Part shown: positions 13,585-39,048 of the stretch, piece after piece
Position numbering within the stretch: the first letter of the stretch is position 1
Layout: every line of letters starts with the position of its first letter
Origin: Pseudomonadota bacterium
GTDB lineage: Bacteria; SZUA-182; DTGQ01
NCBI GenBank assembly: GCA_030625085.1
Contig: DAOURK010000006.1
Span: 4,061-68,060, forward strand
Length of the DNA stretch: 64,000 nucleotides
Reading direction: 5' to 3'
Notes under the pieces: generated by a model
What the model saw: the letters and a program-made list of their open reading frames with translations, nothing else
The model's database searches: none
Told to the model about the DNA's origin: nothing
Translations under genes and position numbers: made by a program

Positions 13585-14922
13585 TTATTTTTGTATGAGA
13601 TTAATCAGGTGATTTATTTTATAACGTAAGTTGCTATCCTGTTCTATTATTTTATCTATTTTACCACATGCATGCATGACTGTCGTATGATCTTTACCAC
13701 CGAAACAATCAGCGATTTTTGGCAAAGATTGATTGGTAATTTTTCGACAAAGATACATGGCAATTTGACGAGGAAAAGAAATTGCTCTACATCGGTTTTT
13801 TGATTTAATATCAGAGAGAGTAATTGAAAAATTTTTACAGACAATTTTTTGAATAGACTCGATAGTAACGAATTTATCATCAACAGAAAAAAGATCGTTT
13901 AATATATCTTTGGCCATAGCCAGGGTTATTTCTTGTGAATTTAGTGATGAATAAGCCCCTAATTTTACAAGACAGCCTTCCAATTCACGAATATTAGATT
14001 TAATATTATTAGCAACAAAAAAGGCAACATCGTCGGGAAGACCTATACTTTCTGCTTCAGCTTTTTTCATTAAGATAGCGATTTTTGTTTCTAAATCAGG
14101 GGGTTGGATGTCGCAAATAAGGCCCCATTCAAATCTTGATCGGAGACGTTCCTCAATAGTAGGTATTTCTTTAGGAGGGCTATCGCTGGAAATAACAATT
14201 TGTTTATGGGCTTCAAAAAGAGAGTTAAAAGTATAAAAAAATTCTTCTTCTGTTCTTTCTTTTCCTGCAATAAATTGGATATCGTCAATTAATAAAACAT
14301 CAATATTTCTGTAATTATTACGAAAATTATTCATGTTGTCATATCTGATAGAATTAATAAGCTCATTAGTAAATTTTTCAGCTTGAGTATATACAATTCT
14401 AAAATTATTATGTTTATTAATAATAAAGTGCCCAATAGCATGTAAAAGGTGCGTTTTACCCAAACCTGCTCCTCCATAAAAAAAAAGAGGATTATAGGTT
14501 AATGAAGGATGTTCCGCAACGGCTAAAGCTGCAGCATGAGCAAATTGATTGCTTGAGCCGACAACAAAGTTGCTAAAAATATATTTATTATTAAGCGCCG
14601 GCATTACAACATTTTCTATGTTTTTCGAAGGTGTTTTTTTTTGCTCATCTTCTTTATATATAGAGAATGAAGCATCTCGGGTATCTTCATCGATAACTAA
14701 TTCAAGATTTATAGCAAGGGGAGAAATATTATTAAGCGATTGGAAGATAATATCCATATAATGTTCAGTTAACCACGTTTTATAAAATTTATTCGGAACC
14801 TTAACCAGCAACAGGTTCTTTTCATAAGAAATAAATTCTGTTGGAAGAAACCATGTTTTAAAACTTTGATGGTTTATTTTCTCTTTAATTATCTCGAGGG
14901 TTTTTTCCCAAATATTATTCAT
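13585..14922 (-). CDS. dnaA: Chromosomal replication initiator DnaA
   Basis: 445 aa with AAA+ Walker A (GGAGLGKTHL) and a C-terminal DnaA-box binding domain. Confidence 0.95.
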   Translation of the reverse strand: MNNIWEKTLEIIKEKINHQSFKTWFLPTEFISYEKNLLLVKVPNKFYKTWLTEHYMDIIFQSLNNISPLAINLELVIDEDTRDASFSIYKEDEQKKTPSKNIENVVMPALNNKYIFSNFVVGSSNQFAHAAALAVAEHPSLTYNPLFFYGGAGLGKTHLLHAIGHFIINKHNNFRIVYTQAEKFTNELINSIRYDNMNNFRNNYRNIDVLLIDDIQFIAGKERTEEEFFYTFNSLFEAHKQIVISSDSPPKEIPTIEERLRSRFEWGLICDIQPPDLETKIAILMKKAEAESIGLPDDVAFFVANNIKSNIRELEGCLVKLGAYSSLNSQEITLAMAKDILNDLFSVDDKFVTIESIQKIVCKNFSITLSDIKSKNRCRAISFPRQIAMYLCRKITNQSLPKIADCFGGKDHTTVMHACGKIDKIIEQDSNLRYKINHLINLIQK

Positions 14923-14954
14923 TTATCCACAGCTTTATCCACAACTGTGGATAA
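14923..14954. promoter_or_regulatory. Cluster of three perfect DnaA boxes (TTATCCACA x2 direct, TGTGGATAA inverted) immediately upstream of dnaA
   Basis: Read directly: TTATCCACA at 14923-14931 and 14935-14943, TGTGGATAA at 14946-14954. Confidence 0.8.
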
Positions 14955-15148
14955 ATATTTAGATTTAGGGATAGAAAAATAGAGCAAGAAAAGAAAAATC
15001 ACTATTAATTTAATACACAGGGATTTTTTTGTTTTTTCAGCCGATTTGTTTGTCATCCCTATGAGAAGAGTGATATAGTCTTAATAATAATGATTAATAC
15101 TATATCAAAAACAAGATACATTTTCAATGTTTTTTTCTTATGAAAAGC

Positions 15149-19543: not shown

Positions 19544-19766
19544 TAAATAGTTCGACAACCCATTGAATTATCGCTAGAAATAAAATCTTCCCTAGAAACC
19601 TCCCGAAAGCTTTTCTTATCATTAATAGTATGGTAAAGTAAGCACCAATCATTTTATATATAATTTAATGGCAAATGCCATAAAATCTAAAGCTTTTATT
19701 GGGTAGCCATTTTATAGTTAACGTGCTGGAAAAAAAGAAAAACCCGATATGTTTGGTTTAATGTAC

Positions 19767-19802
19767 TACAGAAAAAGTTTTCACGTGAAAACTTTTTCTG
19801 TA
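19767..19802. promoter_or_regulatory. Perfect 36-bp palindrome with a parS-like core (TTTCACGTGAAA), 25 nt upstream of parA
   Basis: Read directly: TACAGAAAAAGTTTTCACGTGAAAACTTTTTCTGTA. Confidence 0.6.
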
Positions 19803-19826
19803 CATTACAAAAAAGGTTAAAAAAAT

Positions 19827-20603
19827 ATGGGAAAAATTATTGCTGTGGCCAACCAGAAGGGGGGGGTAGGCAAAACAACCACTGCGGTCAATCTTTCAGC
19901 TTGTTTAGCAATTGCGGAAAAGAAGACCCTTCTCATAGATATAGATCCACAAGCGAATGCCAGTAGCGGTGTGGGATATATGACTGAAGATGCGGAAAAA
20001 ACTATATATCAAGCATTGATAGAGCAAGAAAAGATACATGGTCTTCTTTGTTCAACGCCAATAAAATGGCTTGATTTAATCCCTTCAAACATAGAATTAA
20101 TTGGAGCGGAGATAGAATTAATTTCCGTCTCGAGGCGTGAGTTTCGATTGAAGGAAGCATTGCAAAAAATTCAGGATAAATATGATTATCTTATTATTGA
20201 TTGCCCTCCTTCCCTGGGTTTATTGACCATTAATGCCCTCTGTGCTGCAGATTCGGTTATAATTCCTTTGCAGTGTGAATATTATGCCCTTGAGGGGGTT
20301 ACAAAAATATTAAATACTATTAAACTAATCAAGCAAAATTTAAACCATGAGTTGCAGGTTGAAGGCGTTTTATTAACCATGTTTGATAAAAGAACAAACC
20401 TTTCTAAACAAGTGGTTAAAGAAGTATGTGAATATTTTAAAGAACAGGTTTTTGCTTCGATTGTGCCACGTAATGTAAGCTTAAGTGAGGCCCCGAGCCA
20501 TGGATTACCAATAGTTTTGTATGAAATTCGTTCTTCAGGAGCACAAGTATATTTAAAATTAGCAAAAGAGGTGATAGATCATGTCGAGAAAGGCATTAGG
20601 TAA
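19827..20603 (+). CDS. parA: Chromosome partitioning ATPase ParA/Soj
   Basis: Deviant Walker A KGGVGKTT and typical ParA length. Confidence 0.9.
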   Translation: MGKIIAVANQKGGVGKTTTAVNLSACLAIAEKKTLLIDIDPQANASSGVGYMTEDAEKTIYQALIEQEKIHGLLCSTPIKWLDLIPSNIELIGAEIELISVSRREFRLKEALQKIQDKYDYLIIDCPPSLGLLTINALCAADSVIIPLQCEYYALEGVTKILNTIKLIKQNLNHELQVEGVLLTMFDKRTNLSKQVVKEVCEYFKEQVFASIVPRNVSLSEAPSHGLPIVLYEIRSSGAQVYLKLAKEVIDHVEKGIR

Positions 20604-21435
20604 AGGATTAGGTGCGTTAATATCCAATTTGGGACAAGCACCAATTAATGAAATTTTAGAAATTCCAATTGATCGAATCTCACCTAATCCAGCCCAACCC
20701 AGAAAATATTTTAATGAACAAAAATTAGCAGCGCTAGCTTCGTCGGTTAAAGAGAAAGGGATAATTCAACCTATTCTTGTAAAAAGAGATGATGACGGAT
20801 ATACCATTATTGCAGGGGAGCGAAGATGGCGGGCAGCTCAACAAGTCGGCCTGAATCGACTTCCGGTAATTATTAAAGATGCTTCTGAGAAAGAAGAACT
20901 GGAGTTATCATTAATTGAAAACATACAACGAGAAGATATTAACCCTATTGAAGAGGGAGAAGCATATCAGAAATTGCTGGAATCGTTTCATTATACTCAG
21001 GACTATTTAGCATCTATTTTAGGCAAAGATAAATCTACGGTTTCAAATATGATTCGATTACTCAGGTTAGAAGAACCAATTAAGGAGTATATTAGACAAG
21101 GCCTCTTAACAATGGGACACGCACGCACGCTTTTGAGTATCTTGGATTTTGCAGAAAGATTGCGTATCAGTAAAAAAATCATTCAAGAAGGGCTGTCGGT
21201 TCGACAGACTGAAAAATTAGTTAAGCAGCAGTTGACCGGTAATAAGAAGAAACAAATTTCCGGAGGCGAACCGAATGTTTTTATAGAGGCTTTAGAAGAG
21301 GATTTTAAATCATTATTTGGAACCTATGTAAGAATTAAACATAAAAAAGAAAAGGACAGAGTTAAGGGCAGTATAGAGATTAAATATTCTTCCTCTGATG
21401 AATTGGATAGGATTATATCAGTAATAAAAGAATAG
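20581..21435 (+). CDS. parB: Chromosome partitioning protein ParB/Spo0J
   Basis: ParB N-terminal GLGRGL-like box (LGKGLGALI), the GERRWRAA motif, and an HTH. Confidence 0.9.
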   Translation: MSRKALGKGLGALISNLGQAPINEILEIPIDRISPNPAQPRKYFNEQKLAALASSVKEKGIIQPILVKRDDDGYTIIAGERRWRAAQQVGLNRLPVIIKDASEKEELELSLIENIQREDINPIEEGEAYQKLLESFHYTQDYLASILGKDKSTVSNMIRLLRLEEPIKEYIRQGLLTMGHARTLLSILDFAERLRISKKIIQEGLSVRQTEKLVKQQLTGNKKKQISGGEPNVFIEALEEDFKSLFGTYVRIKHKKEKDRVKGSIEIKYSSSDELDRIISVIKE

Positions 21436-37991: not shown

Positions 37992-38256
37992 ATGAATGGC
38001 GCTGGAATCCCTATTTTTTATGTGGCTTCCCAGCGATTTTTTTACCATGAAAATGCATTTTGAAAAACATGCTTTACTGATGGATTTTTCATCCTCGGGG
38101 GTGAACAACTTGTTCATGAGCGTTTAGACAGGATTGAAGAGGATAAAAAGAAAAATCTAGTAAATCCTGTTTAATTTAACGGGGTTGGCGGGGAGCGTAT
38201 AACGAGCTGCAAGAGGAGTTTTTTTGCGTGAGTGATAAGGCAAGAGGAGTTTTAAG

Positions 38257-39048
38257 GTGAAAATCGCGGTCACTGGCAAAGGAGGAGTGGGTAAAACAAC
38301 GGTAGCCGCCATTTTAGCCAGGCTCTATTCTCATCAGGGTGATTTTGTGCTGGCAGTTGATGCCGATCCTGACGCAAACCTGGCTTCTGCCATTGGCTTT
38401 TCAGAATTGGAAATTTCAAAAATACAACCTCTCAGCTCTTTGTCTTCTTTTATTGAAGAGCGAACCGGGGCTCGTCCCGGGGCAGGAGGCGGCTTTTTTA
38501 AAATAAACCCTCGGGTTGATGATGTGGTGGATCGTTTTGGTATTCAATTTGAAAATATCCGCTTGATCTCTATTGGTAAACCCAAACCGGGAGGCACTGG
38601 TTGTTATTGTCCGGAAAATGTTTTTATTAAGAGTTTGGTTACCCATCTTATTTTAAAAAAAGATGAGATGTTGATTGTGGACATGGAAGCGGGTATTGAA
38701 CATCTGGGGAGGGGAACGGCGAAAGCGGTAGATGCTCTTTTAATTGTGGTAGAACCGGGAAAAAGGAGCCTTCAGACAGCGAAAGAAATTCGCAAATTAG
38801 CTTTAGATTTAGGGATACTCAGGGTATTTTTAGTGGCCAATAAGCTGCATCATACGCAGGACGAAGATTTTTTCAGAAAAAATTTATCGGATTTTGAGAT
38901 TATTGGTTTTTTACCCTTTGACAAAGCCTTGATTGAAGCGGATACAAACGGACAAGCTCCTTTCCCTACATGCCGGAGGGTGATACAAGAAATAGAAAAA
39001 ATAAAACACTTTTTAGATACAAACTCACAGATGAGTGAAGATAAATAA
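38257..39048 (+). CDS. cooC: CODH nickel-insertion accessory ATPase CooC (MinD/ParA family)
   Basis: GKGGVGKTT Walker A and the CooC-signature GCYCPEN (CxC) motif. Confidence 0.85.

Follow-up and report, generated by a model that had tools for sequence, protein, structure and literature searches.

Candidate variant parS with a co-varying ParB residue near the replication origin of a Pseudomonadota bacterium

In the stretch of DNA analysed here (64,000 nucleotides, in the following called the window), a long palindrome is located directly in front of the partition genes parA and parB. This raises the question of what reads it: ParB, for which it would be a parS site of unusual sequence, another dimeric regulator, or no protein at all if the strand simply folds back on itself. 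The palindrome, TACAGAAAAAGTTTTCACGTGAAAACTTTTTCTGTA, is a perfect inverted repeat of 18 + 18 nucleotides with a spacer of 0, in which two nested elements are distinguished.

19767-19802, no strand assigned: full 36-bp perfect palindrome, i.e. the core with 10-bp arms TACAGAAAAA and TTTTTCTGTA
19777-19792, no strand assigned: 16-bp dyad-symmetric core GTTTTCACGTGAAAAC, proposed variant parS (ParB nucleation site)

Within a span of 60 bp, no other fully complementary repeat of such length is present in the 64-kb window, and no second copy of the 36-bp palindrome was found there with up to 3 mismatches tolerated. The palindrome occurred in 0 of 100 shuffles. For 10 more complementary positions per arm outside the 16-mer core, the probability is approximately 5e-6 at the local base composition, and folding of the palindrome as single-stranded DNA gave a z-score of -6.2. 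A preliminary description had called it a perfect 36-bp palindrome, which is borne out by the sequence reading, its uniqueness and the shuffles. The position '25 nt before' parA given there agrees with the palindrome end at 19802 and the ATG at 19827, which are separated by 24 nt.

The two halves of the core, GTTTTCAC and GTGAAAAC, are perfectly symmetric around a CACGTG centre. Compared to the parS consensus TGTTNCACGTGAAACA, 12 of 16 positions are identical, namely the central 12, and the mismatches are confined to the outermost two positions of either half, just as had been described before. Position 1 of the half-site is a T in the variant core and a G in the canonical class, and the sequence thus falls outside the canonical parS class. 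Relative to the canonical half-site GTTTCAC, the conserved G of GTTTTCAC lies one bp farther from the dyad. Two other types of element were considered and rejected. An intrinsic terminator does not fit, as the stem is A+T-rich, CATTACAAAAAAGG instead of a T-run follows the palindrome and the terminator scan was negative at this place; likewise, the sequence does not fit a LexA-type box. A search of the whole window against Rfam returned three tRNAs only and no known RNA at the palindrome.

A canonical parS with up to 3 mismatches was found neither in the 64-kb window nor in the related loci described below, and the consensus pattern search with this tolerance fails to recover even the variant site itself. 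In the window, neither the palindrome nor the half-site or the TTCACGTGAA core recurs above chance, and the same applies to the 16-mer if up to 3 mismatches are tolerated. This leaves a single variant copy in the 64 kb of the window and one in each related locus (5.7-21 kb covered per locus). Since no canonical parS was present in the searched DNA either, the lack of other copies is a weak argument against a parS.

The genomic setting is that of a replication origin. The order is dnaA, three DnaA boxes, rpmH-rnpA-yidD-yidC-mnmE, the palindrome, parA-parB and a U32 peptidase gene. Here, dnaA is encoded on the minus strand (13585-14922, assigned by Pfam) and rpmH, rnpA, yidD, yidC and mnmE on the plus strand.

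14923-14954, no strand assigned: three perfect DnaA boxes (TTATCCACA) between dnaA and rpmH, mark of oriC

The cumulative GC skew reaches its minimum at approximately 14 kb, at the DnaA boxes. Based on the boxes and this turn of the skew, the palindrome is placed about 4.8 kb from oriC, within the mnmE-parA spacer of 283 bp. An origin-proximal position linked to parAB is expected of parS and is what is seen here, with the core located 34 nt 5' of parA. Approximately 120 bp past the DnaA boxes, the window contains a near-perfect palindrome as well (15071-15107, 18 + 18, TGATATAGTCTTAATAAT and ATGATTAATACTATATCA, 89% complementary). The nearest named homologues of GyrB, which are about 61% identical, belong to Nitrospirota and Binatia.

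The identity of ParB homologues to the window ParB decreases from 98, 93, 86 and 76% to 65-61% and then falls to 48%. Related loci were taken from contigs of six further species (L001-L006), whose ParB proteins are 93, 86, 76, 65, 63 and 61% identical. All six have the gene order of the window and contain exactly one TTTCACGTGAAA, and the 16-mer core ends 23-36 nt before parA. In an alignment of the spacer from all seven species, the sole invariant block besides the gene ends is GTTTTCACGTGAAAAC, and the flanks diverge. A conserved core amid diverging flanks, as is characteristic for parS, is thus observed over a range of 61-100% ParB identity. Two further contigs (L209 and L210) represent the same species as L004, and L212, which belongs to the next GyrB group, does not extend to parAB.

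That the palindrome has no function, being a product of chance, what is left of a canonical parS after decay, or an artefact of assembly, would be compatible with its single copy in the window. Furthermore, palindromes upset assemblers, and contig L211 begins with a fold-back copy. This explanation is regarded as highly improbable, since the core is invariant amid diverging flanks in seven species that were assembled independently from different samples, the chance probability is as low as stated above (about 5e-6), and neither the window nor the related loci hold a canonical parS as a substitute. As to L211, the 42 nt after the 16-mer recur in exact reverse complement at its positions 1-42, an assembler fold-back at the palindrome, so that the left arm in L211 is an artefact. 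In this manner, metagenome contigs can be broken or corrupted at palindromic parS sites.

The arms behave differently from the core. Base pairs were scored by their distance from the dyad, because a MAFFT alignment of the palindromes placed gaps on one arm only. At offsets 1-8 from the dyad no variation was present. At offsets 9-18 the sequence varies, and the window and the three species closest to it have kept Watson-Crick pairing. Here, L001 has changed the A-T pair at offset 9 to G-C and displays a perfect palindrome of 46 bp, L002 has changed C-G at offset 16 to T-A, and L003 has symmetrically lost one A/T pair, resulting in a perfect palindrome of 40 bp. The palindromic extension past the core is 4-5 bp in L004 and L006 and is missing in L005. 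The invariant offsets 1-8 next to the varying offsets 9-18 point to the 16-mer as the recognition unit; the long outer arms are, as far as the aligned loci indicate, a feature of one subclade and lie outside this unit. The symmetry of the arms, kept through two-sided changes, suggests either selection for a hairpin, be it in the mRNA leader or as a cruciform, or template-switch correction. The latter, the correction of quasi-palindromes by template switching during replication, is a known mutational process for which selection is not needed.

Whether such a hairpin would be transcribed depends on the promoter of parAB. The palindrome had been proposed to overlap the likely promoter, which was not confirmed, as a consensus promoter scan gave nothing convincing at or beside it. 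A candidate is present farther upstream.

19631-19639, plus strand: TGn-extended -10-like motif TGGTAAAGT, candidate parAB promoter that the consensus scan did not call

This motif lies about 137 nt 5' of the core, compared to 16-17 nt for the TGn-extended -10-like motif TGGTAAACT of L004 and L005; the motifs in the related loci were found by eye. Since a -10-like motif is located 5' of the site, the site probably belongs to a transcribed leader, and if the motif is the promoter, a leader RNA with a stable hairpin is predicted. Between the motif and the palindrome, the window (19640-19766) carries an extra spacer of approximately 125-140 bp with equivalents in L001 and L002. It is partly conserved among these three, absent from L004-L006 and contains a small hairpin, GGCAAATGCC; this segment (19640-19766) gave no match in Rfam.

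This brings up the explanation that the palindrome acts as nucleic acid, either in the leader of the parAB mRNA, where a stem of 18 bp would influence stability or translation, or as a DNA cruciform, and that ParB is not its main reader. The two-sided changes in L001, L002 and L003, which keep the outer arms paired, are in line with this, as are the predicted stability of the hairpin and the conserved -10-like motif upstream, by which the site is probably transcribed. However, selection for structure predicts co-variation within the core, and the core is invariant. The extension is absent in L005 and only 4-5 bp long in L004 and L006, the copies in Elusimicrobia and Omnitrophota-like bacteria described below have non-palindromic flanks, the stem is not a terminator, as a T-run is missing after it, and template-switch correction could maintain the symmetry of the arms without any selection. 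We consider a structural role as the main function quite improbable.

The genes downstream of the site are as follows.

19813-19817, plus strand: AAGGT, likely ribosome-binding site of parA, read from the sequence
19827-20603, plus strand: parA (soj), 258 aa, short chromosomal-type ParA (Pfam AAA_31, CbiA, ParA, MipZ)
20581-21435, plus strand: parB (spo0J), 284 aa (Pfam ParB_N, HTH_ParB, ParB_C)
21031-21033, plus strand: codon of Lys151 in GKDKSTVSN, corresponding by alignment to Arg173 of Caulobacter ParB

At the place matching the likely ribosome-binding site, AAGG or AGGG is present in L001-L003. The window ParA has no N-terminal DNA-binding domain, and its N-terminus is conserved among the relatives. 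The product of parB is the only ParB homologue of the window; it aligns with the solved ParB proteins 7bnk, 1vz0, 6t1f and 6sdk and contains the GERRWRA and ENIQRED motifs. A complete ParB, comprising the CTP-binding N-domain, the helix-turn-helix domain and the C-terminal dimerisation domain, is thus encoded together with ParA, as is expected where a parS is functional.

For Caulobacter ParB, R173 has been shown to hydrogen-bond guanine 1 of the half-site G1-T2-T3-T4-C5-A6-C7, and a one-hybrid selection yielded an invariable R at 173 in parS-specific variants; the specificity residues are R, T, A and G at positions 173, 179, 184 and 201 (PMC7383237). These four residues were located on 6t1f within GKSR, ANT, LLA and TAGH at the correct spacings. 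The window ParB, GKDKSTVSNMIRLLRL...TMGHAR, has K, M, R and G at these positions. Here, Lys in place of Arg at 173 is the sole deviation at a position that is constrained according to that study (PMC7383237), and the site departs from canonical parS at the very base read by residue 173.

This Lys is present in 18 of 18 ParB proteins of the clade, and all 93 other top ParB matches with a readable motif have R173. At the loci of the closest R-type ParBs fetched, L007 and L008, whose gene order is Bacillota-like, parAB is flanked by two exact matches to canonical parS in each case, and no variant site was found. A larger control consisted of 80 metagenome ParB loci chosen without regard to the site; they can serve as such, since the metagenome patterns for clade ParBs were too general and drew unrelated ParBs. 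R173 was found in all 80 of them and a canonical parS with at most 1 mismatch in 33, and the variant site in none within the sequence examined.

The exact 16-mer was scanned for in one genome per species of 185,579 species, which gave at least 120 matching stretches. At uniform composition, approximately 140 matches are expected by chance in the 596 Gb, so singletons in unrelated taxa are to be expected. Among the matches listed, parA lies within the 8-kb chunk of at least 43 stretches; in 40 of these the site is 5' of parA, and in 31 of these 40 the nearest site is at most 110 bp from the parA start. Elusimicrobia typically have 2-3 copies within approximately 1.2 kb before parA among the matches listed, and the Omnitrophota-like loci listed display the order dnaA-yidC-site(s)-parA-parB, an architecture as in the window; the listed loci of both groups contain 2-3 copies. 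Several Elusimicrobiaceae genomes have additional copies of the 16-mer on other contigs.

Outside the window clade, the same 16-mer has non-palindromic flanks with mostly 0-2 bp of chance extension, and some A5/T5 flanks in A+T-rich genomes. Such symmetric A5...T5 flanks, for example GAAAAATGTTTCACGTGAAACATTTTTC, give rise to perfect palindromes of 26-28 bp. They are present at the canonical parS sites of the Bacillota-like outgroups (L007 at 8522 and 10990, L008 at 8092 and 10714) as well as at several dispersed variant sites in Elusimicrobiaceae (L019, L057, L061, L068 and L084). Saccharimonadia-type MAGs (L026, L066 and L069, Saccharimonadia and related), in whose 8-kb chunks neither ParA nor ParB was detectable, carry 2-3 variant 16-mers clustered within 0.1-2 kb.

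A different location is found in approximately 31 high-GC actinobacterial MAG chunks among the matches listed (Gaiellaceae, Thermoleophilia and others). Here, the same A+T-rich 16-mer, usually as cGTTTTCACGTGAAAACg, lies in syntenic position between a gene for a HAMP-HisKA-HATPase sensor kinase and one for an HtrA-like protease (L010, L013, L015, L017, L018, L020, L035, L037, L042, L044, L050, L054, L055, L065, L070, L072, L074-L076, L087, L096, L098, L102-L105, L109, L110, L112, L115, L118 and L125), and no parAB was found in these 8-kb chunks. Because of these copies, the link of the 16-mer with parAB is not an exclusive one. The actinobacterial copies may be a conserved distant parS or the site of another protein.

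The same copies bear on the explanation that the site is the operator of a dimeric transcription factor other than ParB, acting on parAB or on the actinobacterial htrA, and that its likeness to parS is a coincidence. An identical 16-mer between kinase and HtrA-like genes without parAB is what this would predict, and the place just before parA would suit an operator too. This place is, however, also typical for parS, as a canonical parS is located 7-145 bp 5' of parA in 17 of 35 control loci, so that an operator role is not implied by position alone. Furthermore, the central 12 bp are those of parS, the site tracks parAB in at least three unrelated bacterial groups, often with 2-3 copies as in parS clusters, the base changes relative to parS are restricted to where ParB residue 173 reads, a residue which changes as well, and no regulator gene is conserved beside the site. 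The operator of another dimeric regulator, which the preliminary description had named as the alternative, is regarded as improbable, since the site tracks parAB across phyla and changes together with ParB.

The co-variation was followed in the variant-site loci themselves. Residue 173 was readable in 37 of those among the matches listed, of which 28 have K, 8 have R and one has P; site and base-contacting residue thus vary together as expected of a parS, with the exception of an R173 subclade of Elusimicrobia. In L014, one of the eight R173 cases, a core of canonical type is present in addition, 604 bp 5' of parA. The other seven (L028, L036, L043, L063, L089, L097 and L127) form this Elusimicrobia subclade; their ParB proteins read HKSRGAVSN or GKSRGAVSN and are nested among Lys types in the tree, and the loci have 1-3 variant 16-mers before parA. 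Since this subclade retains the variant site, K173 is not strictly required. Ser177 is common to all Elusimicrobia ParBs and the window clade. The Omnitrophota-like variant-site ParBs (L016, L039, L011, L047, L067, L094 and L119) contain Ser or Thr at 201 instead of the 'absolutely conserved' Gly, and RSQAR or RTQAR in place of GHAR.

In bootstrapped neighbour-joining trees, the ParBs of the window clade, of Elusimicrobia and of the Omnitrophota-like bacteria are each monophyletic in 100% of bootstraps, and the union of the three groups is supported by 3-19%. On average, the window-clade ParBs are nearer to R-type ParBs than to the other two variant-site groups. Three separate groups, together with the proximity of the clade to R-type ParBs, argue against simple shared ancestry behind the association of Lys and site. 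Independent origins of the Lys-type ParB are likely from these trees; since the deep ParB tree is poorly supported, the Lys type may also have a single ancient origin. We read Lys173 and the site with the shifted G as a matched change of protein and site, a link which is statistical and has a known exception.

On sequence grounds, GTTTTCACGTGAAAAC is a good candidate for, and probably is, the cognate parS of this lineage, a variant core with a co-varying ParB. The variant parS proposed in the preliminary description finds support in the conservation, the proximity to the origin, the recurrence beside parAB elsewhere and the co-variation of the ParB residue. What did not hold is the palindrome of 36 bp as the functional unit, whose place is taken by the invariant 16-mer.

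The binding of ParB to parS, the loading of the CTP clamp and the subsequent segregation steps are established knowledge on the ParB family, from which we infer by analogy what would happen at the variant site. Here, a ParB dimer would nucleate on the 16-mer via its helix-turn-helix motifs and, once closed into a CTP-dependent clamp, slide onto the adjacent DNA. An origin-proximal partition complex would form, which ParA would move and which would recruit SMC. As the core lies 34 nt before parA and downstream of the -10-like motif, bound ParB may also damp the transcription of parAB. An autoregulation, in which ParB at the core also represses parAB, is a possibility to which we give somewhat less than even weight.

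A more far-reaching reading is tentative and rather unlikely as a whole. According to this, Lys173 ParB and GTTTTCACGTGAAAAC would form a distinct specificity class, orthogonal or nearly orthogonal to Arg173 and TGTTNCACGTGAAACA, which would have arisen more than once, namely in the window lineage, in Elusimicrobia and in Omnitrophota-like bacteria. In addition, the site would here be embedded in a hairpin or cruciform that aids the loading of ParB or the control of parAB, and the long palindrome would have been kept perfect through concerted changes.

The candidate site resembles canonical parS, TGTTNCACGTGAAACA, of Bacillus subtilis, Caulobacter crescentus and Thermus thermophilus, which likewise is a 16-bp dyad centred on CACGTG with identical central 12 bp. 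Canonical parS is likewise origin-proximal and often directly before parAB, and its cognate ParB contains ParB_N (GERRWRA), HTH_ParB and ParB_C. In contrast, each half-site of the variant departs from it at its two outer positions, where the G contacted by R173 is replaced by T and the G is shifted outward. Also unlike the canonical system, the window ParB has K173, one copy is present in 64 kb, and the palindromic arms of the clade reach 10-15 bp.

The nearest precedent in which residue 173 and half-site position 1 change together is Noc with its site NBS (ATTTCCCGGGAAAT). In Noc, R173 is changed to Q along with a change from G to A at position 1 of NBS, position 6 is C and residue 201 is R (PMC7383237). 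In the window, R173 is changed to K along with G to T at position 1, whereas A at position 6 and G at residue 201 stay as in parS and ParB. Unlike Noc, which is a paralogue, the window protein is the sole ParB and lies beside ParA at the origin, and the outward shift of the G is new. A classification as NBS/Noc was rejected on the same grounds, i.e. A at position 6, K173 with G201 and a single ParB-family gene in the window. The centromere-operators of plasmid par systems (parOP of P1 with ParA and ParB; type Ib with ParG or omega) likewise are inverted repeats just before the par operon. By analogy, a plasmid-like coupling of the partition complex to repression of the operon would be possible at the window site.

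No searchable paper contains TTTTCACGTGAAAA, and searches of open full texts gave no account of such a variant and nothing relevant on a non-canonical or Elusimicrobia parS. The parS site and the residues of ParB that read it are regarded as nearly invariant in bacteria, and genome-wide prediction of parS uses the canonical consensus. Since a consensus search with up to 3 mismatches misses the variant, parS could be erroneously recorded as absent in entire phyla. The change from Arg to Lys along with the outward G would represent a natural experiment in which the recognition code drifts and the machine stays unchanged, complementing the story of ParB and Noc. If the Lys-type pair is orthogonal to the canonical one, it would be useful as an additional ParB/parS labelling system. 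Both implications, drift and labelling, are drawn from comparisons of sequences.

Apart from parA, the window contains a second ParA/MinD-like P-loop ORF (38257-39048, 263 aa), of which the first 47 residues are 45% identical to ParA. Its start codon is overlapped by the sole 3-mismatch relative of the 16-mer in the window, GTTTTAAGGTGAAAAT at 38249, which is probably a coincidence.
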